64,000 nucleotides of DNA from Chiloscyllium plagiosum (lineage: Eukaryota), in NCBI RefSeq assembly GCF_004010195.1, contig NC_057757.1, forward strand, positions 4,139,111-4,203,110, written 5' to 3'. Shown here in pieces: positions 1 to 60,935 of this stretch; the stretch's first letter is position 1, and every line of letters begins with the position of its first letter. The position numbers and the translations under genes are program-made. The notes under the pieces are model-generated. The model was not told the origin of the DNA, did not search any database, and saw only the letters and a program-made list of their open reading frames with translations.

Positions 1-329
1 GTGTGTGTGTGTAAGGAAAGACCTGAGTTGAAGAGACAAAGGACTAGAGAGAGGATGGAGTGATGTGGGGGAGGATAGAGAGAGAGAGAGAGAGAGAGAC
101 ACACACACACACGGTGGGGGGTCAGGGGGTGGTTTGGGGTTGGTGTTGGGGACTGTGGGGTGGGGCGGAGGGACAGAGACCCGAGAGTGCTTTTGCAGGA
201 AGGCTGCGGGTTTGTTTTGAAATACAGGCTGAGTGCTGCAGCCAGATTGCAGGGTCTAATATTGCTGCAGTTCTTGGGAGCTGGGGGGAGGGCGCAGATT
301 CCAGAGTCTGTGAAACATTGAAGAAACAC

Positions 330-407
330 AAACCGTCCTGTTCCCCCCCTTCTCGCAACATTGCCCGATCCTCTGAGAGTGAACACACATACATCTGAGG
401 GACCCCG
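330..407 (+). other. Possible non-coding first exon of the Ig V-set gene (start undefined)
   Basis: Strong donor CCG|GTGAGT at 407/408; the exon at 1348 has an acceptor before its ATG, so an upstream exon is needed. Confidence 0.35.
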
Positions 408-1362: not shown

Positions 1363-1426
1363 ATGGCCTTGCAGAGGCTCTCGCTCCTCCTCCTGCTGAT
1401 GACAGTTGCTCTGTGCTGGGCAAAGG
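1363..1426 (+). CDS. Ig V-set gene, signal-peptide exon (MALQRLSLLLLLMTVALCWAK)
   Basis: Acceptor ccaccag| at 1347, ATG at 1363, hydrophobic leader, donor AAGG|GTAAGT at 1426/1427 (phase 1) matching the next exon. Confidence 0.85.
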
Positions 1427-2804
1427 GTAAGTGTTTCATTGCTGGCCCTCCCTGCTGCCCTGCTCAGTCAAAGCCTGGCATGTTCGGACATGCACTGTTG
1501 TTCGTTGCACCATAAGGATAAGCAGGTGTCGGAAGTTATTGAACGTGCGCCCCTTTGAACAGGTCATGATTGATCTGATCGTGCTTTCATTCCAACCTAC
1601 TGCTGAACCATATTATCCATCACTCTCTCAAAATCCAACTGATGCAGTGTCACTGCTACATTGAATGGGCATGCTATAGAGGTACAGTAACCACAGCCAT
1701 GTTCCTCCAAATACAGAGGACCCTCGGTTATCCGAACAAGATGGGTGGGCAATATTTCATTCAGATAATTGATTATTCGGTTAATTGATTTAATGCCTCT
1801 CCTCTGAGGCTTGGAATTTTTTGTCCTCGCTCTGCCTGCCTTGCTCCCTCTCTCTGTCTCAGGGTTTGTTTCTGAGCAGACACACACGTGTGTGTAAGGG
1901 ACCAGCAGCATTGCTGAAGCCTCCCACTGCACCCCCCATCAGTTCAATGGGATTGTCACAGCGAGCACTTGCTCAGTCCGCTCCATGTTCAGGAGACGAG
2001 GCAGCAGCACATCGCACGCGAGCCCTCACTCCCATCCTGTGCCCCCCCAACATCGTCCCCTGTCCACCCCTCTCTGCTCCCCCCAAACTCACCCCCATCC
2101 ATCTCCCCCCATCTGCTTCCCCCAACCCCGGTCCCCATCCACCCCCTCCCACTGAACACCCTCCCACCCCTTACCCAATCCCCCTCTGGGGCAGCCCGGT
2201 CTGGACAACAACAGTAAGACAGCTGCTGCCTTTTGGGGGTGAGTCTCAAGATAACACACACACAGGCACAATATACGTGTGTGAGCACACACAGACACAC
2301 ACACAGGCACAATACACACGTGTGCGCGCACACACACGCACACACGCAGACACAGACACACACACACACAACTTTTTACTGCAACATTTTGACAGGCTCC
2401 ACCTTTGCCCTGTACAGGACAATGTTGGAGAGATTTTCTGGGAAAGGGGGGGGTTTAGGGTTCACTCCTGTGTAGAGCTCCAGGGAAAGTGTCGGGATGG
2501 GGGGAGGGGGTCAGAGAGAGAGTGGGAGGTCAGTCATTTGGATATGGTGCCTGGGCTCCCATCGACGTCCAGGACTGTTCTCAGCAGCATTTCAGTAAGC
2601 TGGGTTCATTGTTAATCACTGTAAACAAAAGATGAGAACACTGTTAAAACATCTCTTTGATGTAATGTTTCTATTGGGATCTTGAGATCTTCTTTGGATA
2701 TTCCAAAATTCAGATAATCGAGGTTCCTCTGTATTTCCCACCCCATAAAACAAACCCTGCATATCCTATCCTTTGCATCAACGACTCCTTCCCCAGTTAC
2801 TGGG

Positions 2805-3000
2805 GGTTAGGTGAATTAGTTTGGCCAAGTCACCAATCCTGTACATCTTTGAACTGTGGGAGGAAACCAGAATCTCTGAAGGGAACCCACACAGATATGG
2901 GGAGAACATGCAAACTCCACACAGTGTGCCTGAGGATGGAATTGACCCTGGGTCCCTGGTGTTGTGAAGCAACAGTGCTAGCCACTGAGCCACCGTGTCA
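2805..3000 (-). mobile_element. HE1-type tRNA-derived SINE fragment
   Basis: Reverse complement of the SINE head GTGGCTCAGTGGCTAGCACTG...GGGTCAATTCC...GTGTGGAGTTTGCA, also found at 63232. Confidence 0.75.
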
Positions 3001-3809
3001 CTCCTGTTGTTTGTGGGATGGGGGAGTGGGGAGCAGTAAATTCTTGTTGACATGGTGCCAATCAAGCAGGCTGCTTTGTCCTGGATGGTGTTGTTGGAGC
3101 TGCCCCCATACTCACATTCCTGACCTGTGCCTTGTCGAAGGTGGACAGGCTTTGGGGAGTCAGGAGATGAGTTACTCACTACAGGATTCCAAGCCCCTGA
3201 CCTGCTCTTGAAGCCGTTATATTTATGTGGCAAGTCTAGTTGAGTTTCTGGTCAGTGGTAACTCCAATGATGTTGATAGTTGGGGATTCAGTGAAGGTAA
3301 CAAAGTTGAATGTCAAGGAGCAGTGGTTAGATTGTCTCTTATTGGAGATGGTCGTAGACTGGCATTTGTGTGGCACGAATGTCACTTGTCACCCCAAGCT
3401 TGGAAATTGTGCAGATCTTGTTGCATTTAGATATGGACTGTTTCAGTGTCTCAAGAGTCGCAAATGGTGCTGAACATTGTGCAATCATCAGTGAAAATCC
3501 CTTGTGAAGGTGGGAAGGTCATTGATGAGGCACCTGAAGATGGTTGGGCCTAAAACACTACCCTGAGGAGCCAGGAGTCTTGTGGCTCATTGGTAGCATC
3601 CCTATCTCACAGCCAGGAATTAGTTCAAGTCCCACCTGCTCCAGAGGTGTGTCATAACATATACGAGCAGGTAATGAAATATGTTTACTCTGAGGAGCTC
3701 CTCCAGAGATCGCCTGGAACTGAGATGACTGACCTCCCCCCCCCCAACAATCACAACCATCTTCCCTGTGCTAAGTAGTCTACCAAATGAGGATGGGGTC
3801 AGGGATAGC

Positions 3810-4142
3810 TAGGTCATATTGTCCACAACTAATGGAAATGATTTGGATGTGAACATAAGAGGTATGGTTCGTAAGTTTGCAGATGACACCAAAGTTGTTG
3901 GTGTGGTGGACAACGAAGAAGATTACCTCAGAGTACAATGGGACTTTGATCAGATGGGCCAATGGGCTGAGGAGTGGTAGATGGAGTTTAATTTAGATAA
4001 GTGTGAGGTGCTGCATTTTGGAAAGGCAAATCAGGGCAAGACTTAATGGTAGGATCCTAGGGAATGTTGTTGAACCAAGAGACAGGTTCATAGTTCCTTG
4101 AAAGTAGAGTCACAGGTAGATAGGATAATGAAGAAAGCATTT
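3810..4142 (+). mobile_element. CR1 LINE RT fragment
   Basis: Encodes KFADDTK and degenerate downstream CR1 ORF2 sequence. Confidence 0.8.
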
Positions 4143-4179
4143 GAGGACTCCCAGGCCAACTCCCTCCCAACTGTATCCT

Positions 4180-4655
4180 ATTGTGCTCACTAAGCTGATC
4201 AGTTTGTTTTCAGATGTTTCGTCACCATGGTAGGAAACATCATCAGTGAGCCTCTGGTGAAGCACTGATGTTCTGTCCCGCTTTCTATTTCTGTGTCTTG
4301 GTCTGTTAAGATGGGTGACATCAGCGGTTGGTAAATGGGGTCCAAATTGATGTGTTAATTTTCAACTGAGACAACACATCCAGCCTGGGACAGGCTAAGC
4401 AGCGACACACACAGGAATTCCCAGAGACCTGGCACTCAAACCGGAACTCCATCAATCAACGCATCGATTTGGACCCCATTTGCCAACCTCTGAGAAAAAG
4501 AACCGTAAATGATATCATCCATCAATACACATAAATAGGAAGCAGGACAGAACACCAGCACTTCACACGAGGCTGACTGATGACGTTACCTAGCATGGTA
4601 ATGGACCATCTGAAGACAAACCCACCAGCTCAGCAAGCAAACTTACAACTTGAAC
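4180..4655. mobile_element. Penelope-like 3' end/pLTR fragments in inverted arrangement
   Basis: 4180-4340 and 4440-4640 are reverse complements of each other and match the termini of the GIY-YIG element at 48209-48910. Confidence 0.7.
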
Positions 4656-5964
4656 CTGTGAGTATGACTGTGTCAGGCTGTTGCTTGACTAGTCTGTGAG
4701 GCAGCTCTCCCCATTTGGCACTAGACCCCAATAATAGGGAGGACTTTGCAGGGTCGGTGGGACTGTTTCTGCTTTTGTCTTTTCTGGTGCCTAGGGTCAG
4801 TGCTTGGTCAGTTTCATTCCCTTTCCGAGACTTTATGACCAAAACTGAGTTGGCCATTTCAGAGGGCAGCTAAGAGGCGATCGCATTGGCTGTTTGGAGC
4901 CACGTGTAGGCCAGACTGGGTAAGGATGGCAGATTTCCTTCCCTGAGGAGCATTCATGAACAGAATGAGTTTATTCATCAAACAACAATGGTTCGCCAGC
5001 CAAGTGTTAATATGCGAGGGAGAGTGCATTTGAATGTGTGTGAGAGTGTTAATAATTTCTCACATCTCACTGGGATAGCCAGCTGGAAATGAAACTTTGG
5101 TATTCCAGATTTGTCACAAAAGTTAGTCCTTTTTAAATAAAATTCACAAAGTTCTCAAATTTACCTGACTTTCAGACCCAGTTAAATAGATTCGGTTTCT
5201 ATGAGCAAACTAGAATTACTGTTTAGTGTCAGTAAGTAGATTTTAGCTACAGGTAAAGAGTTATAGACTGTCAGGATTATATAAACTATATACAATTATT
5301 GTGAATGACATAACAATACCAATTAAACCTATAATAAATCCCTCCTTTCACACACAGACACACTGACAGACACACGCAAATGCATACACACACACACATG
5401 TGCACGCACATACACAGACACACACACGCAGACACACACACGCACACAAACACACAAATGCATAGACACGCGCACACACACACATGGTAAATTAGGTTAG
5501 GATAGAGGTGAAAGACTAAAAGGACAGTTCAGTCATCGCTGTTCCAAGTTCTATTGTTGAGATGATCTTTCTAACTCTTCTGCTGGCTAGCATAGTACTT
5601 TAGTCATCTTTCTCTGGATGCTTCCAGTAATCCATAAGAGATATAGACTGACCTGTTCACTCGTAAAGAGCCTGTGACTTATCAGGTAAAAGTCACAGCT
5701 CTCAGTTACTATGGCAGGGGAAAGAAAGCCAATTTTTGTTCAGTTACGCAGTGCCTTTTTACTGCAGAGAACAGAAAGACTGCTCCTGAGCTGGAATGAT
5801 ATGAACACTTCCACCTCTCTCTCTCTGTAACTTATTCCCAGCTAAAAGTTGCTCATTTACTGGCGAACCCAATCGCACAGCGTAAGCAGACAGAAATATC
5901 TCTGTCATCGATAACTATCCCCCAGTCCTGAGATGGTTCAGTACATTGTTGCCAAGCAAATTGA

Positions 5965-6370
5965 GTCATACAGCACAGAAACAGACCCTTCGATTCAAAC
6001 CATCCATGCCGACCAGATTCTAAATTAATCCAGTTCCATTTGCCAGCGCTTGGCCCATGTCCCTCTAAACCCTTCCTATTCGTATACCCATCCAGGTGCC
6101 TTTTAAATGTTGTAATTGTGCCAGCCTCCACCATTTCCTCTGGCAGCTCGTTCCATATATGCACCACCCTCTGCAGGTAAAAGTTGCCCCGTAGGTCTCT
6201 TTTGGATCTTTCCCCTGTCACCTTAAACCTCTGCCCTCTAGTTTTGGACTCGGCAACATTGGGGAAAAGACCTTGTCTATTCACCCTATCCATGCCCCTC
6301 AAGAGTTTATAAACTTCCATAAAATCACGCCTCAGCCTCTAACACTCCAGGAAAAACAACCCCAGCCTAT
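5965..6370 (-). mobile_element. CR1 LINE 3' end
   Basis: Translates to the CR1 ORF2 C-terminus (EVYK..RG.DRV..GLFP...WNELP..TFKRHLD) plus 3' UTR. Confidence 0.9.
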
Positions 6371-6372
6371 CC

Positions 6373-7105
6373 TGTCTGTGTGGAATTTGCACATTCTCCC
6401 GTGTCTGCCTGAGTTTCTTCTGGATGCTCTGGCTTCCTCCCACAATTCAAAGATGTACAAATAAGATGAATGGGGTGGCACAGTGACTCAGTGGGTAGCA
6501 CTGCCGCCTTACAGCGTTAGGGACCCAGCTTCAATTCCAGTTTCAGGTGACTGTCTGTGTGGAGTTTGCACATTCTCCCCATGTCTACGTGGATGGATAA
6601 GGTAAACAGACAAGGTCATTTTCCCTGAGGTGGGGGAGTCTAGAACGAGAGGGCATAGGTTCAGGGTGAGAGGGGAAAGGATATAAAAGGGACCTAAGGG
6701 GCAACTTCTTCACACAGAGGGTGGTGCGTGTATGGAATGAGCTGCCAGAGGATGTGGTGGAGGCTGGTACAATGACAACATTTAAAAGGCATCTGGATGG
6801 GTATATGAATAGGAAGGGTTTAGAGGGATATGGGCCAAGTGCTGGCAAATGGAACAAGATTAGGTTAGGATATCTGGTCAGCATTGGACTGAAGGGTCTG
6901 TTTCCGTGCTGTACATCTCTATGTGCAGGTTAGGGTGAATCAGCCATGCTGAATAGTGTTCAGGGGTGTGTAGGTATGGTGTACTAGTCAGGGGGAATGT
7001 AGAGTAATTGGGGAGGGGAATGGGTCTGGGTGGGTTACTCTTCGGAGGGTCCATGTGGACATGTTGGGCTGAAGGGCCTGTTTCCACACTATAGGAATTG
7101 TATGA
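6373..7105 (+). mobile_element. HE1-type SINE(s) interrupted by a CR1 3' fragment (~6594-6922)
   Basis: SINE head at ~6475, CR1 C-terminus nested, SINE body and tail resume at ~6922. Confidence 0.8.
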
Positions 7106-7230
7106 TTCTATCCGTCCCCTCTCTATAACTCAAACCCTCCAGACCCCGGCAGCATCCTGTCCGAACCCTTTCAGCTTGTTTGCTTCTGAGAACCGCGAGT
7201 GCCTTCATTTTAAATTCTGCTTCTGCCCAG

Positions 7231-7599
7231 TGCCACTGAGCTGCACTCCAAGGGTCGAAGAGCTGACCGCGAGTGTCGGAGGGACGGTGACGATGCCGTG
7301 TGCCTTCAATTGGACGGGTTCGGCGCCCGAGACGCGGCGGGCACTGTGGCAGAAGAAGGCCGAGCACGGCAGCCCGCTGGTGGTCCACGTGTATGAGATG
7401 AACAGGGAGAACATGGGCCAGGACAGAGAGTTTGCAGGGCGCACCTCGCTGTTGGCCAATTGGTTCGAGGCGAAAGACGTGTCGCTGCGCCTCACCCACC
7501 TCTCACTCAACGACACCGGGGATTACGAGTGCCACGTGATCACGCAGAGGCCCCCTGCTTCCAGCGTCTGCACTGACGTCAAGCTGACCGTCACTCCAG
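7231..7599 (+). CDS. Ig V-set domain exon, butyrophilin/MOG/B7-like
   Basis: Acceptor ttctgcccag|, donor CAG|GTGAGC, 369 nt, phase 1-1. Motifs VTMPC (B-strand Cys), LWQK (C-strand Trp), VVHVY, FAGRTSL, DVSLRL, DTGDYEC; sequons NWT and NDT. Confidence 0.92.
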
Positions 7600-7724
7600 G
7601 TGAGCAATTTCCCCTGGCTGCTCGACTGCAAGGGGCATCACCGGGTTTCTCTTCCCCACCGGAGAAAGGGAATCTCCCACCAGCTGGGACGGAAAGGTGA
7701 ACGATGCCGAGGGATGGCAAATAA

Positions 7725-9270
7725 GATTTCCAAGGATGGTGCCAGGGTTGGAGGGTTTGAACTAAAGGGAGAGGCTGAATAAGCTGTGGCTATTTTCCCT
7801 GGAGCGTCGGAGGCTGAGGGGTGACCTTACAGAGGTTTATAAAATCATGGGGGGGCATGGTCTTTTCCCTGGGGTGGGGCTCCAGAACTAGAGGGCATAA
7901 GTTTACGGTGAGAGAGGAAAGATAGAAAAGGGACATAAGGGTTAACTTTCTCACACAGAGGGCGGTGCGTGTATGGAATGAGCTGCCAGAGGAAGTGGTG
8001 GAGGCTGGTACAATTCCAACATTTAAAGGGCACCTGGATGGGTATATGAATAGGAGGGGTTAAGAGGGATATGAGCCAAGTGCTGGCAAATGGGACTAGA
8101 TTAGGTTGGGATGTCTGGTCAGCATGGATGAGTTGGACCGAAGGGTCTGAACTTACAGAATACTGGACAGAACGGACATTGGGAAGATTTTCCATTGGCA
8201 GGAGGACCCGAGGGCGCATCCTTAAAGTAAAGGGAAGGCCCTTTAGGAGGGCAGTCAGAGGAAACTTCGTCAGCCAGAGAGTGGTGAATCTATGGGATTC
8301 ATTGCCACAGAAGGCTGTGTAGGTCAGGTTATTGAGTGTACTTAAGATGGAGAAAGATAAGTTCTTGAATATCAAAGGGATTAAGGGTTATGGGGAGAAA
8401 GCGGGAGATTGGGGTTGAGGAACGTATCAGCCATGATTGAATGGCAGAGCAGACCGAATGGGCTGAATGGCCTAATTTCTGCTCCTACGTCTTACGGTCT
8501 AAACGGGGTTGAATTCAGACGTTGCATTTTAGTGAGAAAAACCAGGGCAGGACTTACTCAGTGCCCTGGGTTGTGCCGTTGAACAGGGAGACCTAGGTGT
8601 GCAGGTACATGGTACCGTGAAAGTGGCATCACAAATAGGCAGAGGAGTGAAGAGGGCATTTAGCATGCTTACCATCATCAGTCAGAGCATTGAGTACAGG
8701 AGTTGGGAACACTATGGAAGACATTGGTGAGGCCACATTTGGAGCACTTCATAGCACCCCCTTCACCCTGCTATAAGCAGGCTATTATTAAACATCAAAA
8801 GGGGGAATAAAAAGCATTTACAAGGATATTACCAAGACTGGGGGGCTTTGAGTTATAAGGAAAGACTGGGACATCTTTCACTGAAGCATCAGAGGCTGAG
8901 GGGAAACCTTATAGAGGCTTATAAAATCATGAGGGGCAAGAATAGGGTGAAAAGCCAAGGTCTTTTCCCCACGGTAGGGGATTTCAAAACTAGAGGCCGT
9001 AGGTTTAAGATGAGAGGAGAAAAATTAAAAGGACCCGAGGGGCAGGTTTTTCATGGAGAGGATGCTGTGTGTATGGAACGAGCTGCCAAAGGAATTGGTG
9101 GAGGCAGGTACAATTACAACATTTAAAGGGCATCTGGATGGGTAGATGAATAGGAAGGGTTTAGAGGGATATGGGCCAAATGCTGGCAAATGGGACTAGT
9201 TCAACCGGGACTAGGAATCCCAGTTGGCATGGAGGAATTGGGCCGAAGGGTCTGTTTCCATGCCCTCTGA
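7725..9270 (+). mobile_element. Stack of CR1 LINE 3' fragments (at least 3)
   Basis: Repeated CR1 ORF2 C-terminal motifs (RRLRGDL.EVYKIM, WNELP, LWDSLPQKAV) and 3' UTRs. Confidence 0.85.
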
Positions 9271-10457
9271 CTCTCAGCAGGGACTGAGCTACCTCTGAGA
9301 GCTTCACTGATAGTTGAAGGTGCCGCTCTTCTCTCTCTCTCTCTCTGTCTCTCTCTGTCTCTCTCCTTCTCTCTATCCATCTCTTGTCAGTCAATCCTAC
9401 TTCCTCCCAGCATTTCTCTTTCTCTTGCTTTCTGTCCTTCTATTATCCCCTTTCCTTCTCTCTTTCTCTCTGCCCATCTCCTCTTTCATTCTCCTTTCTG
9501 TCTGCATTTTTCCCTCCCTCCATTTTCTCCCTGTGTACTTCCTCATTCGCTCTCTTCCAGTCTTCCTGCTTCGCTTCCACCATTGTTTTCCAACCTTCTG
9601 TTTCTTCCTTTATCCANNNNNNNNNNNNNNNNNNNNNNNNNNNNNNNNNNNNNNNNNNNNNNNNNNNNNNNNNNNNNNNNNNNNNNNNNNNNNNNNNNNN
9701 NNNNNNNNNNNNNNNNNNNNNNNNNNNNNNNNNNNNNNNNNNNNNNNNNNNNNNNNNNNNNNNNNNNNNNNNNNNNNNNNNNNNNNNNNNNNNNNNNNNN
9801 NNNNNNNNNNNNNNNNNNNNNNNNNNNNNNNNNNNNNNNNNNNNNNNNNNNNNNNNNNNNNNNNNNNNNNNNNNNNNNNNNNNNNNNNNNNNNNNNNNNN
9901 NNNNNNNNNNNNNNNNNNNNNNNNNNNNNNNNNNNNNNNNNNNNNNNNNNNNNNNNNNNNNNNNNNNNNNNNNNNNNNNNNNNNNNNNNNNNNNNNNNNN
10001 NNNNNNNNNNNNNNNNNNNNNNNNNNNNNNNNNNNNNNNNNNNNNNNNNNNNNNNNNNNNNNNNNNNNNNNNNNNNNNNNNNNNNNNNNNNNNNNNNNNN
10101 NNNNNNNNNNNNNNNNNNNNNNNNNNNNNNNNNNNNNNNNNNNNNNNNNNNNNNNNNNNNNNNNNNNNNNNNNNNNNNNNNNNNNNNNNNNNNNNNNNNN
10201 NNNNNNNNNNNNNNNNNNNNNNNNNNNNNNNNNNNNNNNNNNNNNNNNNNNNNNNNNNNNNNNNNNNNNNNNNNNNNNNNNNNNNNNNNNNNNNNNNNNN
10301 NNNNNNNNNNNNNNNNNNNNNNNNNNNNNNNNNGGGGTGCTGCTATGAAGGATGCTGTTCGATGGGGTGGGTTTACGTGGGAAGGGGAAGAGGGTGAGGG
10401 TTGAGACCAGAAACTAATAAATCCCTTTGGGTTTTTTCATGTGGGGTGTTTTCACAG

Positions 10458-10531
10458 ACGCAGCTGAAGCTACAACAATACCCAGCATTCTTCTGCTGAT
10501 GGGATTGGCCCTTGTTCCTCTGTTCAGTTGA
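10458..10531 (+). CDS. Ig V-set gene terminal coding exon: hydrophobic C-terminus, predicted GPI-anchor signal
   Basis: Acceptor gttttcacag| at 10457; phase-1 splice gives DAAEATTIPSILLLMGLALVPLFS* (TGA 10529-10531); a further donor CAG|GTCAGT at 10551/10552. Confidence 0.7.
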
Positions 10532-11379
10532 TTGGATTCCCTATGCACCAGGTCAGTAACAGCAAGAAACATTATCATTATCCCCCTCCTCTCCCTATCC
10601 CTCTCCTCTGAGTAACCGCCATCCTGTGTAATCCCTTTTATTGACTTGTGGGATGTAGTCATCACTGGCTGGGCCCAGCATTTATTGCCCTTTGTGAAAG
10701 TGGGGGTGAGTTGCTTTCTTGAATCACTGCAGCCCCACGTGGTGTAGGGACACCCACACAGCGCCATTAGGGAGGGAGCTCCGGGATTCTGACCCAGCGA
10801 CATTGAAGGAACATTTTCAAGTCGGGATGGTGAAGGGGTCAGAGGGGATCTTGCAGGGGGTGGTGTTCCCTTGTATCTGCTGCCCTTGTCCTTCCAGATG
10901 GAAGTGGTCATGAGTTTGGAAAGTGCTGTGTGAGGATCTTGGGTGAAGTTATGCAGTGCATCTTGTAGATGGGACACACTGCTGCTACTGAGCGTCAGTG
11001 TTGGAGGGGATGGATGTGGTGCCAATCAAGTGGGGGGGCTGCTTTGTCCCTGGATGGTGTTGAGTTTCTCGAGGGTTGTTGGAACTGCTCCCAGCAAGTG
11101 GGGAGTATTCCTTCACTTAAAGACTTGCGCATTGTCGATGGTGGACAGGCTTTGGGTTGTTAGGAGCTGGGTTACTCACCACACTATTCCTAACCTCTGA
11201 CCTGCTCTTGGACTCACTGTGTGTATGCAGTGAGTCCAGTTCAGTTTCTGGTCAATTGTAACCCCAAGGATGTTGATATTGGGAGTGGGGGCAGGGGGTT
11301 CAGTAACGGTAACACTATTGAATGTTAAGAGGCAGTGGTTAGATTGTCTCTTGATGGTCTTTGCCTGGCATTCAGAGAC

Positions 11380-49051: not shown

Positions 49052-49422
49052 CTACTCGTCGGCCTGGATGATAGGCGTGAATGGGAGCGCCCATTGCCAC
49101 CACAAGAACAGGCGGCGAGACTGGGGGTGGCTCTCCTTCATGGAGTTGAACAAGTTGAAGTCCATGTCATCCAACATCCAGCTCAGCATGCGGATGATCA
49201 CCAGGGCCGGGAGCCGAGAGACACACTGCACAAAGGCCTTGAATGTGTCTGCCTGGGGCTTCAGTTGGTTGGTGTACAGACGGGAAATATTCAGATCCCT
49301 CAGCTCGCGCATGTCATCCAGGGTCAGGAAGAAATCCCTCCAGCCCAGGTCGCTGAGCTCCTCATTCATGCTCAGATCGAGAACATTCAGTTTCCGAAGA
49401 TGACCGCTTTTGGCTGCTTTGG
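49052..49422 (-). CDS. NAIP: NAIP last coding exon (C-terminal LRRs)
   Basis: Acceptor ccccacag|; AKAAKSGHLRKLNVLDLSMN..FF.TLDDM..QCVSRLP..MLSWMLD..MKESHPQS..W.LPFTPIIQ matches the NAIP C-terminus as recalled; TAG ends at 49052. Confidence 0.93.
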
Positions 49423-49854
49423 CTGTGGGGTAGGACACGGTTTGGGAAGAAAATTAGCTGGTATGAGATGAGGTAACTTTCAGGAGACCAGCAGAAATAG
49501 GAATAGGAGTAGGTTATTCAGCTGCTTGCACCTGCTCTGTCATTCAATAGGATCACGGCTGACAATCCTCACGGCCACTTTGTTGCCTTTTTCCTGTAAC
49601 CCTTGATCAAGAATCTATCTCATTCAGTTTTCGATATACACAAGGGCTGGACCCCCACAACGCTCTCTGGCAAAGAGTTTCAAAGACTCACAAACCTCTG
49701 ATGAAAACATTCCTCCTCATGTCAATCCTAAATTGTGCCACTTTATTCTGAGACTGTGCCCTTTGGTCCTAGACTCTCCCATGCAGGGAACGATCATCTC
49801 AGCATTGACCCTGTCAGGCCCTCTAAGCATCCTAGATGTTTCAATGAGATTTAC

Positions 49855-50612
49855 TTTAGGTAAATGTGAGGTCTTGTATTTTGGTACGGTAAATTAGGGC
49901 AGGACTTATACACTTAATGATAGAGTCCTGGGGAGTGTTGCCAAACAAAGAGACCTTGCAGGTTCATAGTTCCTTGAAAGTAGAGTTGAAGGTAGAAAGG
50001 ATAGTGAATGAGGTGTTTGGTACGCTTGCCTTTATTGCTCAGTGCATTGAGTACAGGGGTTAGGAATTCATGTTGCGTCTGTATAGGACATTGGTTAGGC
50101 CACATTTGGAACACTGCATTCAATTTTGGCTTTCCTATAAAGGGAAAGATATTGTTAAACTTGAAAAGGTGCAGAAAAGATTTACGAGGATGTTGCCAGG
50201 GTTGGAGGTTTTGAGCTATAGGGAGAGGCTGGGACTACTTTCCTTTATCAAGTCTCATAGAATCATGAGAGACATAGATAGGGTGAATGGCCAAGGTCTT
50301 TTCCCCAGGGTAGGGGAGTCCAAAACTGGAAGGCATAGGTTTAAGGTGAGAGGGGAAAGATTTAAAAGGGAGTTAAGGGGCAACTTTTTCACATAGAGGT
50401 TGGCACGCATATGGATTGAGCTGCCAGAGGTGGTGGTGGAACCTGGTATAACTACAGCGTTTAAAAGGGATTGGATGTGTATATGAAAATAAAGGAGTTA
50501 GTGGGATATGGACCAAATGTTGGCAAATGGAACTAGATTAATTTAGGATATCTAGTCGGCATGGACAAGTTAGGTCAAAGGGTCTGTTCTGCGCTGTACA
50601 ACTCTATGACTC
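49855..50612 (+). mobile_element. CR1 3' portion nested within an opposite-strand CR1 fragment (~49480-50720)
   Basis: LYRTLVRPHLEHCIQFW..LEKVQKRFTRMLPGL through the 3' UTR. Confidence 0.85.
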
Positions 50613-51154
50613 ATCCTCCAGGGGCTAGAGCCCCAACCTGATTAGCCTTTGCTCATACGACAATCCCTCTATTCCAGGGATCATCCTAGTGAACCTTCTC
50701 CTACCTGCCTCCAACGCCAATGTTCTTTAAAAAGGACACCAACTTTGAGGAATTACAAATGCGGGCCAGAACAGTGATATCTCAAGGGAAGTCCTACTCT
50801 GATTCAATTCACGAACAGAAGAAGCACTATTTTGCAATTTTTAAAATCAGATGTGGCATTTTGTTGCCGTCCCTCAGAAATACTTGGCCCTCTCAAAGCA
50901 ACCCTGGTTCAGACTCAACTCCATTACTGTTAGACTGGAATCACATGTGGGCCCAGACTGAAAAGATGGCAGACTCCCCTCCCTAAAGGACAATTTGAGC
51001 GCAAATGAGTTTTCACACAATTTGATGGTAGTTTCACAGTCACCATCGCAGAGAAAAGCTTTCAATCCCAGATTTACAAATTCAACTTCGATTCCAACAA
51101 CTGCATCTCAGGGATTGGAACTCTCAGATTTAGCCTGGGTGCTGGTGTTGGAAT

Positions 51155-51565
51155 GGTTACCTCCTCCAGCCCCAATACCCCTCCCTATCTTCATAACCTC
51201 CTATATGTTCCCCAACGCCCCGTCCTATCTGTGTTACCTCCTCCATCCCCTACATCCCACCGTACCTCTGAAACCTCCTCCAGCCCCTAGACCTCATTAT
51301 CTCTGTAAGCTCCTCCATCTCCTACACCCCTCCCTATCTGTGTTACCTCCTCCAGCCCTACACCTCTCCCAATCCTTGTTACTTCCTCCAGACCCTACAA
51401 CCCTTCCTACCCCTGTAACCTCCTCTGTCCCCTATACACCTCCATATCTCTGTAACCTCTTCCAGCCCTGTACCCCTTCTACTTCGGTCACCTCCTCTAG
51501 CCCCTACAACCCTCTCTATCTCTCTAACCTCATCCAGCCCCTACAACTCTCTGTGCACCTCCAAT
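51155..51565. repeat. Degenerate ~35-bp pyrimidine-rich tandem repeat
   Basis: Recurring CCCTATCTCTGTAACCTCCTCCAGCCCCTACA-like units. Confidence 0.8.
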
Positions 51566-51886
51566 CATGGTCCCTTGGGATGCCTGCATTTTACTGACTC
51601 TGCAATTTGTGGCTGTGGTCCCAGCTGCCAGGATCTTTCAAAATCCCTCCTCCACTGATTGGATTCTCTCGTTTCCTCCTAAAAGTTTTCCCTGGGACCT
51701 TCCTCACTGAATGAGCATTTGGTCAACTTTTTCCATATCTCCTAACACAGTTGAGAGCTCATGTTGCTCGATAGTAGTTCATGCCAAACCATCTCAAGGG
51801 ATCTTGCGCTATTTCAGAGGTGCTCGGTAAATGTAAACCCTTTATGGTTGTTACAGAAGTGTTCAACACTGCAACAACATACTCAC

Positions 51887-52051
51887 CTAGCTCTAACAGA
51901 CTCTGGTCATCCATGATCTTTTTGATGGAGAGCTCCCTGAGGTGTTGCAGGTTCGGTAACTGTTGAGTTAGTGGGGATGCAGCAGTGATTATTCCATCAT
52001 TGTAGCAATGGTGAAATACTTCTAGCAGTGTGAGAGAGCCAACAGCACGAG
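51887..52051 (-). CDS. NAIP: NAIP LRR exon
   Basis: ctcctag| ... G|GTGAGT, 165 nt, phase 1-1; ARAVGSLTLLEVF..DGI..LRELSIKKIMDDQSLLEL. Confidence 0.88.
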
Positions 52052-52657
52052 CTAGGAGTGGAGTAAAATTCACGTTTGGGTAAAGAATAATTCCAAAACA
52101 ACACTCTTTTCCTCATTTTAACCAGATAATACCCCTTATTCTCTCCCTCTAAAGCTACTTAATCATCTCCATTGTTTCTGAATTTACCTCCCAATTCGGG
52201 TCAGCCTTTGCTGTCCCTAAACAATGTTTTAGCTTCTCACTCGACATTCTTCCCCCCTCCCCACTCGTCACCTCATTTGAACACCTTAGAGAACTCCTTC
52301 ACTCAGCATCTTCATTCAACACCTTCACTTGACTCACACAATGCTCTCACTCTCTCCCATCTTTCTCACTTGATCCCCTCACTCAAATTACTCAATTTTC
52401 CTTACTTAACTCCTTCATTTGGCCTCTCCCTTTGACATATTGCTATGAAAATGTAATGTGTACTGTACTTTTAAGGGAGACTGGAAGCTGGCATGGACTT
52501 AGAGAGGCACACAGTGTGCTGAAAGAATTTAAAATGGTAATTTGACTGTGAAACCAATAATGCAGATGAGTTGTCATGATACAAAAGCAAATTCAAATTC
52601 AGCTAATCTATTTAAATTATGTCCCAGATACCAAAATCCAATCAAATTTGAATTTAG

Positions 52658-52922
52658 TGATGTGCAATTCTGGTCTCCTTCCTATTGGAAAGATGTTGTG
52701 AAACTTGAAAGGGTTCAGAAAAAATTTACAAGGTTGTTGCCAGGGTTGGAGGATTTGAGCTATAGGGAAAGGCTGAATGGGCTGGGGCTGTTTTCCCTGG
52801 GGCATCGGAGGCTGAGGGGTGACCTCATAGAGGTTTACAAAATTCTGAGGGGCATGGATAGGGTAAAAAGGCAAAGTCTTTTCCCTGGGGACGGGGAGTC
52901 CAGAACTAGAGGACATAGACTT
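52658..52922 (+). mobile_element. CR1 ORF2 fragment
   Basis: VQFWSP..KDVVKLERVQKKFTRLLPGL..RRLRGDLIEVYKI. Confidence 0.85.
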
Positions 52923-53542
52923 ATGCAAAAATCAAAATACAAACACACACAGACAGGTACATACAAGCAGAACTAAAGGCTCTAGACTATGATTGCCCTT
53001 AGGAAATCCAATCAGGATTTCCCGAGTAATGTTCCCAATTAGGGGGTGAAGGAAAATAGAATTTGGTCCCACATGGAGCAGGCAAAGCTGGAAGTTCTTT
53101 CTTAATTCAGCGTGGGACGTGGGCATCGCTGGCTGGTCCCAGCATTTACTGCCCATCCCTAACTGACCCTTTAATAAGGTGGTGGTGACCTGCCTTCTTG
53201 AGCCACTCCAATCTCACGTGGTGTAGGGACACCCACACAGTGCCGTTACAAAGGGAGCTATTCTGACCCAGTGATACTGAAGGAACATATATATTTCCAA
53301 GTCAGGATGGCGAGTGGCTCAGAGGGGAACTTGCTGGGGATAATGTTCCCAAAATCTGCTGCTCCTTAAGGACTATGAAGGTCAGCAGAAGAGGGAGAAG
53401 GGACTGAATTAAGTTGGAAAAGAAAAATGAGAAGAGTGCAGGGAACAGAAAACATCAAAAATCATCTCACTCCCAGACTCCAATGGATTAATCTATGTCA
53501 ATCTATTGATCACCATCGCTGATCAGGATAAAAGCAACTTAC

Positions 53543-53629
53543 CAAAAGCTTCTGATTCCTCTGCATTGGAAAAGTTGATGCCTGGAACTTCCAATAGTCT
53601 GAGGTTCTGGAGTTTGCTCAGTGAAGCAG
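53543..53629 (-). CDS. NAIP: NAIP LRR exon (too short for the ORF track)
   Basis: tcttctag| ... G|GTAAGT, 87 nt, phase 1-1; TASLSKLQNLRLLEVPGINFSNAEESEAF. Confidence 0.87.
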
Positions 53630-53829
53630 CTAGAAGATAGAGAAGTAATGGGAATAATAGCACAGAACAGAATAACACCATTCAGCCCTTGCCTTCTCTA
53701 CAGGTGCTCCTGCTCCACAAAAAACCTTCCCACTCCCTTTAAGATCCTTAGCTCACCCCTGAGAGAGCATCCTTCCACCTTTTTCTCCCTCATCCACACT
53801 CTCCTTAAAGGATTCGGGACAGTATAAAC

Positions 53830-54257
53830 GTGTATATGTGTTTGAAATGTGCGTCAGTGCGTGTTTGAGTACCTCTGCATTTAGGTTTTCTGTGTGTGTA
53901 CACTAGTTTGCCTGTGTGCCAGCATATGTGCATTCTCCTGGATATCTGTGTGTGTGTGTGTGTGAGAGACTGTCCAACTTATTGCTGCAGGTACACCTCT
54001 GGGAGTGTGCTCATAGGGTACATGTGACTGTGCATGCGTGTGAGTATATGTATGTGAGTTTGAGAGCAAATCTGCATGTGTATGTGTACATGTTTGTATG
54101 AGAGTTTGTGTAGGTGGGGGTGTATTGATGCATGTGCCTGAGTATGTGTGTATGTGCACATGTGTTTGTGTGGGTAAGAGTGTATTTGTGTGTGAATATC
54201 TGTGTGAGAGTTTGAATGAGGTTGTGAGAGTGCGTATGTGTTTGTGTGTGCACGCGC

Positions 54258-54294
<37 letters not shown>

Positions 54295-54360
54295 TGTGTA
54301 TGAGAATGTGCGTGTGAGAGTGTTTATGTGTGAGTGTTTGTGTGACTGGGTGAGTTTGTG
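53830..54360. repeat. Degenerate (TG)n/(AG)n microsatellite tract
   Basis: Direct reading; similar tracts at 1-115, 2250-2370, 5345-5485, 9330-9615 and within cassette spacers. Confidence 0.85.
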
Positions 54361-54959
54361 TTATGGGACCTCCATCAGCAGACAGCAACAGTAATGGAGA
54401 CCATTGAGAAGGGGAGCTCAAGCAGTTGTGCTGGGACCTCCTTGCAGTTGTACTGATACCTGATAAACAAATCCTTTTCTTTGCATGGACCTATTCATCT
54501 CTTTGCAAGGACCTATTGTATACTAACACCTGCTTATCAGCTAGTAACCAATGCTGTCCAGACATTACGTGACTGAAGCTAATGACTTGGCAAGTTGCCT
54601 CGCTTGTTCATTCTCCTGCAATTAACAGTCTGCACATTGTTAATCGATTGCAATCTGCATAATCACGCAACTTTCTTTATCTCGTTGGAGTGACTTGTGG
54701 CCATCCGGTCAATCTAGTCACTGTCTCTCCCTATGAGCTCATGAACAAACCAGTCAATACTCAATGCTTGAGTGACACAGTAGTTCTAAATTGGACTGCT
54801 ACATGCGAGTCACCCACTGCATAATTTACTTCCATCCACAAAAGTGGAGCATCGCAAGGAGCCCCCAGTCTGCAAAACCACCTCTCCACTCCCAAAATTA
54901 CAGCCACCCCCCAAGGAAAAACAGACAAGACATCAGGGTTGAGACCTTAGTTCACTTAC

Positions 54960-55124
54960 TGAACGCCAAAGTTTCATTCGGAGACAGGTGAAGCGCACTT
55001 AGCACTAGTTCCTCCAGACGTGAGCACGATGATAAAGCCTGGCTGAGATCCTCAAACTCTGGGAAGCTGCTGGTGCACTTCAGGTGGAAGACTCGGAGTT
55101 GTGAAAAATTCTGGAGGTGGTGAG
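54960..55124 (-). CDS. NAIP: NAIP LRR exon
   Basis: ccccacag| ... A|GTAAGT, 165 nt, phase 1-1; LQNFSQLRVFHLKC..F..L..C..LEEL. Confidence 0.9.
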
Positions 55125-56332
55125 CTGTGGGGACAGTGACAGGGACAGATTGCGACAATGCAATGCCTTTCAAGAGCTTATTTTGTCCTGGTTTTTGTTT
55201 TAAGAGAGGTTATAAGGCAGAGCTGTCTCTAAGAAGGTAAACAGCTTATGAGGCCTTGGTGTGTTTTTTTAAAGTTGGAACAATAGAAGCAGCCTGGATG
55301 GGTGTGGCCAGCTCTCACAAATCAGGCTTCCTAGCTTATTTGAAGTTTTTAGGTTTAGCTTTAAGCAGAAACCATTGGGTTCTCAAAAGAGTTGAGAGCT
55401 CCAGTGAATGTCTCCTGGCTGCTACTCTCTCTGAATTTTCTCGCAATGTTTTCTTCCTCCTGGGTTGGAGAACTGCGTGTGAGAATCTGTGTCTGAATTT
55501 GCCTTTTTCTGCCGAGGGGCATGTTTATGGGATGTTACTGTATTGGATCAGTTAATTAGTAACAGTTACTGTATCTATTATTCAGTTAAGTTCCAATCTG
55601 TTAAGTTATTCTAAATTCTTCTTTCTTTCTTTGTATTTGAACTACAGTGTTTCAATAAATTGTATTTTTCTTAATGTTGAGTGGTTTGACCAGTCGCATT
55701 GCATCTGCAACACACACTTTACATCTACCTTTAAATTAAGAAAAAGTTAGGGTCTAGGCTGCCTTCTTAAAATATTTTGAGGGGGTTCTGAACTAGTCCA
55801 TAACAGCAGGAACTGTTGTCGTTCTTTACAAATGCACCGAGGGGTTACTTCGTTGTCAATGGATTGCTGACAATCGCTTGCTTAAAAAATGTGAATTAGA
55901 GGCAGATGCGCACCCTCAAACCTGCTCTGCCATTCAGTAGGATCACAGCAGATATTTGTGTTCCAAGTCAAGCATTTCATCTCTCCATGGGAGTAACCAA
56001 ACCTCTGTCAGGCAACCTCTCAATCCCTCAATCTATTTTTAAACTATTGAGTATTTCCTCAAGCATTTCCTTAAGGGGATGTGTGCAGCATGGAAATGGA
56101 CCCTTCGGACCAACCAGTCCACGCCGACTGTAATCCTAAACTAAACTAGCCCTATCTGCCTACTCCTGGCCCATATCCCTCCAAACCTTTCATATCTCCT
56201 TCCCATTGGAAGGATGTTGTGAAACTTTGCCAAGGTTGGAGGATTTGAGCTACAGAGAGAGGCTGAATAGGTACTACAGCAGGGTTGGGGACCTCACGTT
56301 TGTTTGACTTATCAAAGAACTATGGGCCCTAC

Positions 56333-56509
56333 CGAGTTTTGAAGAATCCTGCATGCAGTTGACTCCAGATAAAGTGAGGTTTTCCATGTTCTGCAGTGTC
56401 GCTAAGCCCTCGGAAATCTGGTCAATGATTCTCAGAGACGAACCAGTCCTCACCTCGATCTTGAGTTTTTTCAGGTGTTCCAACTTGTCCAATCGGCTCA
56501 GCAGGTACT
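56333..56509 (-). CDS. NAIP: NAIP LRR exon
   Basis: ctttgtggtag| ... G|GTAGGG, 177 nt, phase 1-1; EYLLSRLDKLEHLKKLKIEV..I.E..LQNMENL. Confidence 0.88.
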
Positions 56510-58274
56510 CTACCACAAAGAGATTGGTCCTTTAGTTCATCATGAGAAGCCGATGCACTCTTCGTATGTCTTAGAATCATTATAGAATCCTTAGAGAAAT
56601 ACCGCAGTTAGCAGTAGAGTGGGGTGGGGGTGGGGGGGGGCGGGAAATATAAAATCCCTGGACAGTGGAGCAGGACTATTCATCCCATCAACTTCACACT
56701 AGCCCTCCAAAGAGTATCTCACCCAGACTCACCATATAACCCTGCATTTCCCACAGCTGACTCACCTAGCCTGTGCATCGCTGGCCACCATGGGACAATT
56801 CAGCATGGCCAAACCACTCTAACCTATACAATCCTGGACACTATGGGTCAATTCAGCATGGCCAAACCACTCTAACCTATACAATCCTGGACACTATGGG
56901 TCAATTCAGCATGGCCAATCTGCCCTTACCTGCAAATCTTTGGACTGTGGGAGGAAAACCCACACAGACAATGGACAGTGTACAGACTTTACACAGACAG
57001 TATCGAACCTGGGCCCCCGGTGCTGAGAGGCCGCAGCACTAACCATCCGCGCTGCCCCACCTGGCAACTTCGAACAGGAACGTTACCTGCAAGGTTTTCC
57101 TTACTCGTGTGGCCAGTTTATTCCCTTCCACCAACCAGGACTTGGCCTGGTCCCTGTATCCTATCACACAGTGCACCCATCGCTGACCTGCATTACTTCC
57201 TAATCCAGCAATGGATTCCAAACTCATCCTCGTTTCTCTGGGCCTTGCCCCTCTCTACTCCTGCAACTTCTTCCAGGCCTGACAACTCTCTGAGATCTCT
57301 GGTCCTTTCCTCCCATTCTGGCCTTTTGAGCATCCCCCAATTCCCCTCACTCCACCGTTAGTGGTAATGCCTTTGGCTGCTTGGATCCTGGGTTTTGGAA
57401 TCTCCCCCTCTCCTAAATTTGTCCGTCTCTCTCCCGGCTTCATGGATGCTCCCTAAAACCTCTCATCTCTTCGATCAAGCTTTTGGTCACTTCTCTGGAG
57501 CCAGCTATTGCAGAGTCGTGGAGATATTCTGGGGCAGAAGGAGGCCATTTGGTCTTTCGTGCCTACCCTAGCTCTGTTACCCAGTGGCCAATCTCCTGCC
57601 ACCCCCCATATCCCTACAGACTCTCTCCATTATCCAGTGCCCTTCTTGAATGTCTCATTTGAACCTGCCTACCCTACATTTCCAGGCAGAGTAAATACAT
57701 TTGGTAGCACAATGGTCAGCTGCCTCACAGCACCAGGGAACTGTGTTCAATTCCAGCCTTGGGTGACTGTCTGTCTGGAGTTTGCATGTTCTCTCTGTGT
57801 CTGTGTGGGTTTGTTCCAGTTTCCTCCCCTAGTCCAAAGACGTGCAGGAAAAGCAATGGGTAGTGATCAGGGTTGAAGAAACAATGGGGACAGTTCATGG
57901 CTGACAATGGGGCGTCTGTGGTAGCAGTGATGATGACAAGACTTGGTGTATGTGGGGGGGTTGGGATAAGGACATGGGAGAAAGGTACTCAGGCCCAGAA
58001 ATTATCGAACTTGACATTGAGTCCTGCAGAGTCCACCATGTGGAAATCAAAGAGCTGTTCTCCGAGCTTCACTGGAGCACTATAGCAAGCCTGTTGCCCA
58101 AAGAACACGGGGATGTGTGTTAAAGTGGCAGACAACTGGAAGCTCAGGGTCATTTCTGCAGACAGAATGTAGATGTTTCGCAAAGCAGCCACCCAGCCTA
58201 CGCTTCATTTCCCCATTCTAGAGAAGGCCACATTGTGAGGAGCGAATGTAGTAGTTGGTAAATAGTTGGGAAGG

Positions 58275-58855
58275 TGCTGGGGAGTGTTGCTGAACAAAGA
58301 GATCTTGGAGTGAAGGTTCAGAGTTTCTTGAAAGTGGAGTCACAGGTAAACAGGATAGTGAAGGCGGCGTTAGGTACGATTGCCTTTATCGGTCCGTGCA
58401 TTGAGCATAGGAGATCATGTTGCGGCTTTTCAGAAATTGGTTAGGCCACTTTTGGAATATTGCAGGCAATTCTAGTCCCTGCTATAGGAAGGATGTTGTG
58501 AAACTTGAAAGGGATCAGAAAAGATTTACAAGGATGTTACCAGGACTGGAGGATTTGAGCTACAGGGAGAAGCTGAATAGGCTGGGGTTACTTTCCCTGG
58601 AGCGTTGGAGGCTGAAGGGTTACCTTATTGGGGGTATAGGGTGAATAGGCAAGCTCTTTCCCCCCAAGGTGATGGAAGTCCAAAACTAGAGGGCATAGTT
58701 TTAAGGTTAGAGGACGAAGATTTAAAAGGACCTGGACAGTGAATGGGATGTATATGGAATGAGTTGCACAGGAGTGGAGGAGGCTGGTACATGGACAACA
58801 TTTGAAGAGCATTTGAATGGGAAGGGTTTAGACAAATTATGGGCCAAATGCAAAT
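58275..58855 (+). mobile_element. CR1 3' fragment
   Basis: KDVVKLERDQKRFTRMLPGL.. Confidence 0.8.
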
Positions 58856-59685
58856 AGATTAATCCCTAATGGCCCAGAGGCAGTTAAGTGTCAACCACAT
58901 TGGCTGATCGTCTGGAGTCATGTGTAGGCCAGACCAGGTAAGAATGGCAATTTCCTTCTCTGAAGGACAGTAGTGAACCAGATGGATTTTTCCAACAGTC
59001 ATCAACTGTCATCATTAGACTCTTAATTCCAGACCTTTTTTTTGTTGAATTCAAATTCCACCATTTGCTATGGTGGGATCTGAACCCAGCCTTACCTGGG
59101 TCTCTGGATTAACAGTCCAGCGAGAATACCAGTAGGCCATCACTTTCCTCTCAACAGTTGGACCAAATGGCCTGTTTCTGTGCTGTACATCTCTACGACT
59201 AGATTGTGGGAAGTGTAGGTAAAGTGCTGCTTGACCTGGAAGATGTGTCTGGGCCCTCGGATACTTGAACATCAAACTTGCTGGCCAATTTGCAAAGGCT
59301 GACACTCCCACACGCCCCTGGATCTCCCTAGCTGCCTCATCAATCATCACTCTCAACTGCCCCTGAACCACTGAGCCCAAATTCCAGAACCCGCTTCCTA
59401 ACAGCAGTGACTGTTTCCTCGACAAAACGTCCAGAGACCATTCTCCCCAGCTCACCTGTTCGATGACTCTGATCTCAAGTTCTACGATCGGCAAACACAT
59501 GCCATAGACATATTTGCCCCCTACTGCACTGGCACTTGACTAACTACTAGCTAATGTGTCGTCAAATGGAGACAGATCATGACTTCCTATGCCAGATTTA
59601 ACCTATTTCTCCCATGGCATCACTGGCTAAATCTACCTAAGGACTTCCAAACATTTCCAATTGATTGGCAGACCTGGCATAGAGT

Positions 59686-59891
59686 TGAGAGTGTGTGGTG
59701 CTGGAAAAGCACAGCAGATCATACAGCATTCTAAGAGCAGGAAAATCACATTTCAGGCAGGAGCCCTTCATCTGGATGAAGTGATCTTGCCCAAAACATC
59801 GATTTTCCTCAGATGCTGCATGATCTGCTGTGTCTATCCAGCAACGCGCACACTCTCAACTCCAGCATCTGCAGTCCTCACTTTCTCCTCA
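59686..59891. mobile_element. Hairpin mini-Penelope (inverted pLTRs) with 14-bp TSD
   Basis: ACCTGGCATAGAGT at 59672-59685 and 59892-59905; the two arms are reverse complements meeting at degenerate hammerhead cores. Confidence 0.8.
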
Positions 59892-60392
59892 ACCTGGCAT
59901 AGAGTCATTGGGATCTACAACAGAGAAAAAGCCCCTTCAGTCCATCAAGGCTGTGCCAGTCAGAAACAACTACGTAATTACTCTAATCCTATTTTCCAGC
60001 ATGTTTGCCCTGGCAAGGGCACATCTAAATGCTTCTTCAATATGATGGGGATTTCTGCCTCTCCCCCACACTCACAGCCAGTGGGTTCCAGATTCCCATC
60101 TCCCTCCGTGTGAGGAAGAGCTTGTCCCCATGTCCCCTTTGAACCTCCTGTTCCTCAGCTTCAGTCTATGCCTCCCTGGGTCATTGATTTCCCCCCAACA
60201 AGGGGAAAGGTTCCTCCCTGTCTACCCTGTCAATGCCCCTCATCATTGTTTTATCCATTAAATCATGCCCCTTCGCAATCTCCTCTGCTCTAAGGGAAAC
60301 AACCCCAGTCTGTCCAATCTCTCTTCATAACTGAAACATTCCATCACAGGCAACATCCTGGTAAATCTCTCCAGATTGTGCAACATCCTGCT

Positions 60393-60528
60393 CAGATCAG
60401 ATCAGGTCTGACCTGCTGTGCTTTTTCGATTTTCCTGCTGCTCGGATGCTGCCTGACCTGCTGTGCTTTTCCAGCACCACTCTGATCTAAACTCTGGTTT
60501 CCCGCATCTGCAGTCCTCACTTTTGCCT
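60393..60528 (+). mobile_element. Mini-Penelope pLTR with 11-bp TSD
   Basis: AACATCCTGCT at 60382-60392 and 60529-60539. Confidence 0.7.
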
Positions 60529-60935
60529 AACATCCTGCTAAGTCAAATCTCCCAGGACTAGGCAACATCTTGGTAAATCTCTCCATACCGGGCAACATTC
60601 GAGTAAATTTCCCCAGACTGGGCAACGGCCTAGTAAATCTCCTCTGCGCCCACTCCAGTGCTAGCAGATGCCTCTTATAAGGTGGATTCCAATGCTCCAG
60701 CAGTGTGACCTAACCAACAGTCTATACAGTTCCAGCAGCAACTCCCTGTTCTTAATCTGTAGTATCCCATATGCCTTCTCAAACATTTTATCCATCTGTC
60801 CCACTACCGAAGGGACAAGCTGACAGCCACCAGTTTGGACACCTTCCCTGCACGTCCCCAGCTGGGTGACTGTCTGGCGCGGGGCGGTTAAACACGGGCA
60901 GCGCCTGGCGCTGCGACAACGCTATCGGTCAATAC

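Follow-up and report, generated by a model that had tools for sequence, protein, structure and literature searches.

Ligands of the B7 family tune the strength of lymphocyte activation, and the early history of the family is read mostly from sharks. B7 proteins contact their receptors through the front face of the V domain. The chain of B7-H4 ends almost at its hydrophobic segment, and MOG and the chicken BG proteins carry a single V domain. Proteins that join a single V domain to a glycosylphosphatidylinositol (GPI) anchor are already known: in Thy-1 (CD90) and CD160 a leader is followed by one V domain, which has extra cysteines, and by a GPI signal, and the anchor site of Thy-1 lies directly after the domain. 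Here we describe a gene of the white-spotted bamboo shark Chiloscyllium plagiosum whose product has a leader, one V domain of B7 type and a GPI-type tail. It lies in a stretch of 64,000 nucleotides (nt), called the window below, which corresponds to C48:4139111-4203110 of the genome assembly (GCF_004010195.1, contig NC_057757.1); public proteins of this species are identical to neighbouring exons. We put at roughly 0.65 the probability that the product is a GPI-anchored single-V protein of B7 type that likely acts as a ligand, its receptor being carried by another cell.

Gene model and splicing

On the plus strand, three coding exons of 64, 369 and 74 nt (1363-1426, 7231-7599 and 10458-10531) are separated by two phase-1 introns with GT donors and AG acceptors, and the joined coding sequence of 507 nt gives 168 residues and a stop. 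Exon 1 (1348-1426) begins with 15 nt of 5′ untranslated region (UTR) and, from the ATG at 1363, carries the leader as 21 codons plus 1 nt before its phase-1 donor; its acceptor AG at 1346-1347 is predicted from sequence, with no RNA junction behind it. The putative leader of 21 residues, alone in its exon, is hydrophobic, helical in the structure model and conserved in orthologues. Exon 2 (7231-7599) is the immunoglobulin (Ig) V-set domain, residues 22-144, with the core residues C45, W61 and C122, an extra pair C26 and C135, and sequons at N48 and N115. The coding part of exon 3 (10458-10531) supplies D145, A146 and A147, a spacer of seven residues, 14 uncharged and mostly hydrophobic residues, and the stop; the codon of D145, the predicted omega residue, is divided by intron 2.

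Splicing was followed in public sequencing runs. None of the 24 listed is recorded as RNA; the four used (X1, X15, X16 and X6, from four studies and three coded organisms) are guessed to be RNA in two cases and unrecorded in two. Each was assembled onto 7130-7730 only, that is the V exon and its flanks, to give one contig per run, and such contigs lose rare isoforms and carry neither expression level nor tissue. All four span the whole V exon and break at 7599; what follows is the opening 30 letters of exon 3, which occur nowhere in the window but at 10458. On the 5′ side, three contigs extend as far as 7230, and all of these continue into the end of exon 1 (letters unique in the window to 1396-1425). 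Since these joints fall exactly at splice sites, the molecules were spliced. A preliminary description of this DNA had proposed three phase-matched exons encoding 168 residues, and both of its junctions, 1426>7231 and 7599>10458, are found in the contigs; we regard the three-exon coding model as practically certain.

An assembly gap of 717 N (9617-10333) lies within intron 2, and with a second gap of 500 N it falls less than 5 kb from the V exon. The preliminary description cautioned that the larger gap could hide an Ig C-type (IgC) exon. A three-exon form that is incomplete or minor, with an IgC or transmembrane exon inside a gap, would agree with the blindness of contigs to rare isoforms and with a catshark gene model that ends in a transmembrane segment. 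The spliced contigs jump over the gap, however: the V exon is joined directly to 10458 in all four, so the main transcript has no IgC or transmembrane exon, and the gap 9617-10333 holds no IgC exon of that transcript. The same core of 168 residues is found in three independent shark gene models, whereas the catshark model resembles a merged one. Among 108 plus-strand frames of at least 55 residues at 1427-30000, outside the gaps, none is a second Ig exon. A hidden exon is thus hardly credible, and the caution can be dropped for the main transcript.

The contigs also carry 207-457 nt 5′ of the V exon, the basis for a candidate non-coding upstream exon. Its 3′ part would lie at 281-407 (+) before a GTGAGT donor at 408, and it bears a weak likeness (E 0.08-0.15) to the N-terminal extension of the whale shark model. 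Just 5′ of exon 1, at 600-1230, a tandem array of a shark repeat of about 60 nt was seen by eye. At the other end, the 3′ UTR runs for 20 nt (10532-10551, +) to a possible CAG/GTCAGT donor read from the sequence; a 3′ UTR intron is possible.

A genome search found a single near-identical V locus. No full-length protein record from the bamboo shark turned up, but the same searches also failed on proteins that the database does contain. The assembly and the runs differ at three T>C sites (7310, 7392 and 7394), for which an allele and an assembly error are both possible. Those at 7392 and 7394 are present in all four runs and change Tyr76 to His. The VVHVY motif of the preliminary description therefore stands in the assembly, but the runs have His in place of its Tyr. 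Residue 76, on the predicted binding face, is also His in C. punctatum and is Arg in three distant orthologues.

Orthologues

The bamboo shark protein can be aligned along all its 168 residues, with no gap, to whale shark XP_048476177 (counted from the second Met), basking shark XP_078390009 and sevengill shark XP_067828258; the three species represent three shark orders and both superorders. Identity in leader, V domain and tail is 20/21, 82/122 and 22/24 for the whale shark, 13/21, 71/122 and 18/24 for the basking shark, and 12/21, 61/122 and 18/24 for the sevengill. With the bamboo shark counted, all four proteins end in D-(A/T)-A, a spacer and an uncharged hydrophobic stretch running to the stop. 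The design of leader, single V domain and GPI-type tail is conserved in three other sharks, and the tail pattern that the preliminary description had picked out is conserved with it. A partial model from C. punctatum is 94% identical. The automatic NCBI names are uncharacterized or VTCN1-like, the latter for sevengill and basking shark.

The catshark model XP_072349274 has the same V domain without leader and first cysteine, joined to a PILR-like V domain and a transmembrane segment. Because it lacks those two elements, and because the bamboo shark exon matching its second domain lies 240 kb off, as a locus of its own, this fusion is likely a merged gene model. A representative search, in which multi-domain proteins dominated and 143 of 150 rows had more than one match, yielded no orthologue from a ray or chimaera.

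The C-terminal tail

As set out in PMC10491789, a GPI signal has a small omega residue (Asp included), no Pro at omega+1 and a small residue at omega+2; a spacer of 8-12 residues follows, then 15-20 hydrophobic residues at the chain end, and about 10 polar, unstructured residues precede omega. The omega triplet fits in all four orthologues (D-A-A, D-A-A, D-T-A and D-A-A). Hydrophobicity was scored on the Hessa scale as a position-independent sum, the best stretch of 19 residues being taken from each protein. In all six transmembrane controls these windows score −1.1 to −5.1; the four orthologues have values of +1.3 to +2.4, and eight paralogue proteins have values of +1.7 to +7.0, so the tail is less hydrophobic than every control and its hydrophobicity is marginal. 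Only one residue follows the best window in the orthologues, with no charged stop-transfer residues and no cytoplasmic tail.

A GPI-like filter applied to 532 phase-1 acceptors within 25 kb passed exon 3 alone. Across four scans of 25-30 kb its errors, both in paralogue scans, were one region flagged falsely and one true tail overlooked, and a GPI-like tail by itself is therefore weak evidence. From the sequence of the tail and its orthologues, we consider it probable that the protein is GPI-anchored.

Several features of the tail weigh against this. The spacer of 7 residues and the hydrophobic stretch of 14 (23 residues after omega) are each one below the minimum of the rule, and there are two prolines. 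The last modelled strand (G) reaches residue 143, two before omega, so that the polar linker of about 10 residues is absent; this need not be disqualifying, since Thy-1 is an exception. Conservation is also higher in the tail than in the V domain (p 0.014 in whale shark, 0.17 in basking shark and 0.027 in sevengill), which would be odd for a discarded signal.

A tail that is retained as a short membrane anchor without a cytoplasmic part, as reported for B7-H4, and conserved by packing against a membrane partner would account for its exceeding the V domain in conservation in three of three comparisons (two of them significant) and for the missing linker. It also has a precedent, in that B7-H4 was first suggested to be GPI-anchored and afterwards reported to be transmembrane (PMC2760136). 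We think it quite unlikely here, as 14 residues of marginal hydrophobicity lie well apart from all six transmembrane controls, no basic residue follows the tail, and D-(A/T)-A is kept in 4/4 orthologues.

The same short and marginal tail could mean that the mature protein is mainly soluble, being cut but not stably anchored or else released immediately, and acts as a secreted decoy V domain. Epaulette shark models of a neighbouring paralogue include isoforms without the tail, and in mice the soluble V domain of B7-H4 is a decoy, according to PMC2760136. A conserved omega-type tail would be needless for secretion, though, and none of the four contigs reads through into intron 2, with the proviso that contigs lose rare forms; we hold a mainly soluble product to be very improbable.

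Fold and family of the V domain

The middle exon matches the Pfam V-set domain (E 1.5e-13) and is modelled as a nine-strand Ig V sandwich (predicted local distance difference test score, pLDDT, 93). With the spliced contigs and the stop after the hydrophobic end, this bears out the earlier proposal of one V domain and no cytoplasmic tail. Against PDB sequences the domain scores at most 26 bits with BTN3A1 and MOG and 33 bits with B7-H4, being weakly closer to B7-H3 and B7-H4 than to other V domains; a shark BTN-like domain on contig C37 (L008) scores 72-89 bits with BTN and MOG. The best single-domain PDB matches of a family profile are B7-H3 (60.6 bits), B7-H4 (55.7), MOG (50.8) and BTN3A (49.7-49.8). 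VTCN1-like, butyrophilin-like and HHLA2-like clusters lead in the Atlas (0.95-0.92). By profile, Atlas, Pfam and model, a B7-type V-set domain is present.

A different reading is a GPI-anchored adhesion molecule, Thy-1-like or CAR/nectin-like, outside lymphocyte co-signalling. CAR leads in both fold searches, in one of them at Z 17.7 ahead of PD-L1, ICOSL, VSIG4, B7-H3 and B7-H6, which are tied at Z 15.6-15.9, so the B7, CAR and VSIG4 families are not separated by fold; a Thy-1 cluster reaches 0.91 in the Atlas, and the nearness of the V sequence to B7-H3/H4 is weak. The profile ranking and the leading Atlas clusters (0.92-0.95) point away from adhesion, as do the immune neighbours described below (NAIP-like, C1s-like, PILR/Siglec-like and VJ-type V exons), and we judge it improbable.

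Family placement was examined in a tree of 41 rows, none of them human, with group labels checked against PDB names for L008 and L014 only; one row, a PILR-like exon in the wrong frame, had been removed beforehand. The gene family and domains of the newt Pleurodeles waltl form a single branch (88/84, not starred); in this tree newt V1 groups with the gene and its paralogue C on a starred branch (99/92). In topology tests by the approximately unbiased (AU) criterion, grouping the orthologues with the five C37 BTN-like domains was rejected (p-AU 0.0005), as was grouping them with the B7-H3/H4-like shark domains L014, L015 and L018 (p-AU 0.0016); a sister relationship between the complete family and those C37 domains was not rejected (p-AU 0.21). 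The preliminary description had assigned the V domain to a mixed butyrophilin, MOG, BG and B7 type. Its B7 part is sustained by profile, Atlas and Pfam; the butyrophilin/MOG/BG part fails on bit scores and tree. Judged by these comparisons, the gene is not a butyrophilin, and the NCBI names VTCN1-like and CD276-like are best taken as nearest-hit labels that imply no orthology to B7-H3/H4.

Cysteines at the start of the domain and in the last strand occur together in 13 of 14 family rows, both newt domains and one of 25 other rows; the sole family row without them is the catshark model, whose N-terminus is missing. Their co-conservation suggests a second disulfide, C26-C135, and the gene belongs to a separate B7-like lineage marked by the extra pair. 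In a further B7-like V exon (L049/L004, C87283:2142-2444, −), which is unplaced in the tree, the frame that was read includes the cysteine of the last strand but lacks the first one. An origin from the V domain of TAPBPR, proposed from a likeness between the two, was rejected: E was only 2.5e-4 for paralogue C, and TAPBPR was absent from the top 60 profile matches.

Proposed mode of action

In the proposed mechanism the leader would be cleaved near residue 20 (placed by eye), and the transamidase would cut after Asp145, the 24-residue tail being exchanged for a GPI lipid. The lone V domain would be shown on the outer cell face, near the membrane. As there is no cytoplasmic tail, the protein itself would not signal; it could engage a partner in trans or, if a phospholipase or protease set it free, compete in solution as a decoy. 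Binding may run through the front (C-C′-F-G) sheet, the better conserved face: outward positions invariant in the four orthologues number 8 of 17 in the front sheet and F-G loop and 1 of 13 on the back (Fisher p 0.04, for positions picked after the alignment was seen). Such conservation would favour a conserved partner over a decoy for fast-changing pathogens. A role as an immune ligand is somewhat favoured.

Paralogues and gene neighbourhood

Four genes of the family lie on C48, three of them with GPI-type tails. Besides the gene described here, paralogue A (3.96 Mb) has a single V domain and a hydrophobic stop exon and is named MOG-like or CD276-like at NCBI, paralogue B (4.08-4.09 Mb) has a V domain, a second Ig-like exon and a GPI-type tail, and paralogue C (2.93 Mb) has a V domain, its 3′ end lying next to an assembly gap. 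For two C48 paralogues, public models end in a hydrophobic stop exon, and the matching exons were located in the genome. The second domain of paralogue B (L035:8600-9100, −; C48 about 4.088 Mb) is cysteine-rich, has no Pfam Ig match at E 1e-4 and appears atypically C-like.

Neighbouring genes were found by a Pfam scan of the 148 longest of 582 filtered frames, together with two window frames. A NAIP/NLRC4-like gene (window 49052-63021, −, and L051:1515-2177, −) ends in the window: its BIR exon lies just outside, and an exon of 699 codons with NACHT, winged-helix and NLRC4 helical domains is followed by leucine-rich-repeat-like exons further down. Other neighbours are C1s-like and CUB exons, an SPSB-like exon (SPRY) and a PILR/Siglec-like V exon (L056:6830-7651, −; C48 about 3.906 Mb), whose catshark counterpart is the one annotated as fused to the orthologue of the gene. 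Five tRNA genes (three Leu-CAG and two Lys-CTT) and many tRNA-like repeats occupy 14470-46181, with three more tRNA genes downstream.

Three VJ-type V exons (L033:8751-9113, −; L026:7135-7506, −; L042:4985-5350, +), at 2.909, 3.996 and 4.068 Mb on C48, alternate with the B7-like genes. They share 25-29% identity, end in a joined J-like G-x-G-T motif and match T cell receptor (TCR) alpha V best, one of them also matching the F-G region of CTLA-4. A transmembrane exon is predicted in two of the three genes. These non-rearranging receptor-type genes would be the most obvious candidate partners of the B7-like proteins.

The gene is on C48 and the BTN-like domains are on C37, so MHC (major histocompatibility complex) linkage was not found; Chr37, assumed to be C37, is treated together with MHC genes in PMC7677710. 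Synteny with human 12p13, an MHC paralogon, had been considered on account of the SPSB-like and C1s-like neighbours; genome searches for TPI and GAPDH gave no usable match, and the idea was overturned by a published list of immune genes on chr48 of this species. There, NAIP, C1s-like and MASP2-like are consecutive and in the same order as here (PMC7677710, Table S10 part 2). The list also has TRIP6, SERPINE1, EPO, GNB2, CLDN15, APRIL, ARRB2 and PLD2, and it places C1S proper beside TCR beta on a different chromosome (PMC7677710, Table S10). A reading of the tRNA cluster with a butyrophilin as a mimic of the extended MHC was likewise dropped, because the gene is, as judged above, not a butyrophilin; eight tRNA genes in 364 kb tell little. 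The human copies of the listed chr48 genes lie at 7q22 and 17p13.

A broader and rather unlikely scenario is an old B7 branch kept in sharks, with the extra disulfide and mostly GPI-anchored, whose genes alternate with the VJ-type receptor genes as linked ligand-receptor pairs; the chromosome would match human 7q22/17p13 and no MHC paralogon, and the newt protein would be a transmembrane survivor. If the linked pairs were real, co-signalling through B7/CD28 and B7H6/NKp30 would have a parallel in a second such system, in which the product of this gene would be one ligand. The pairing can be tested directly, since the candidate receptor genes share the cluster.

Novelty and significance

The preliminary description called the protein undescribed. 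Automatic NCBI models of its orthologues exist, so this is too strong; in the literature we found no published account of the family, although mention in subscription papers or in supplements beyond PMC7677710 Table S10 part 2 is possible. Under the terms used, the family goes unmentioned in the accessible parts of PMC10751288, PMC12227049 and PMC13262535, and PMC11372145 has no term match; the portions available of PMC6742230 and PMC7269912 have no bearing on it. The locus represents a real, conserved and uncharacterised B7-like lineage with a probable GPI anchor. In mammals the B7 family does not employ this design, a conserved, tail-less and probably releasable B7-like V domain, which offers a small, cheap construct for finding the receptor it binds. 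Should it be just another GPI-anchored Ig protein, the value would lie in a corrected name, for genes that are neither butyrophilins nor B7-H3/H4 orthologues.

Comparison with known systems

The extended B7 family usually has a V plus C ectodomain with a transmembrane anchor, and the gene has a single V domain. Its best single-domain profile matches, B7-H4 (VTCN1; 4gos) and B7-H3 (CD276; 9lme and 9ly6), share about 23% identity with it in structural alignment; unlike them, it has no C domain and has the extra C26/C135 pair. Butyrophilins, MOG and chicken BG have V-domain motifs of the C′, D and E strands in common with the gene, which lacks their transmembrane segment, heptad tail or B30.2 domain, the nearby SPRY exon being SPSB-like. 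Thy-1 and CD160 resemble it in design; they are absent from the 49 PDB sequence matches and from the best 60 profile matches listed, so a link by descent is not supported by sequence matches. A precedent for GPI-type B7 proteins in fish may be CD80/86 of rainbow trout, V plus C proteins of which GPI-type forms have reportedly been described. The uncharacterised ‘CD276 antigen-like’ proteins of the newt (XP_069072352-5) have the same cysteine pair and the T-x-R-P motif of the F-G loop in their V1 domain, but, unlike the shark gene product, they have a second V domain as well as a cytoplasmic tail behind a true transmembrane segment.

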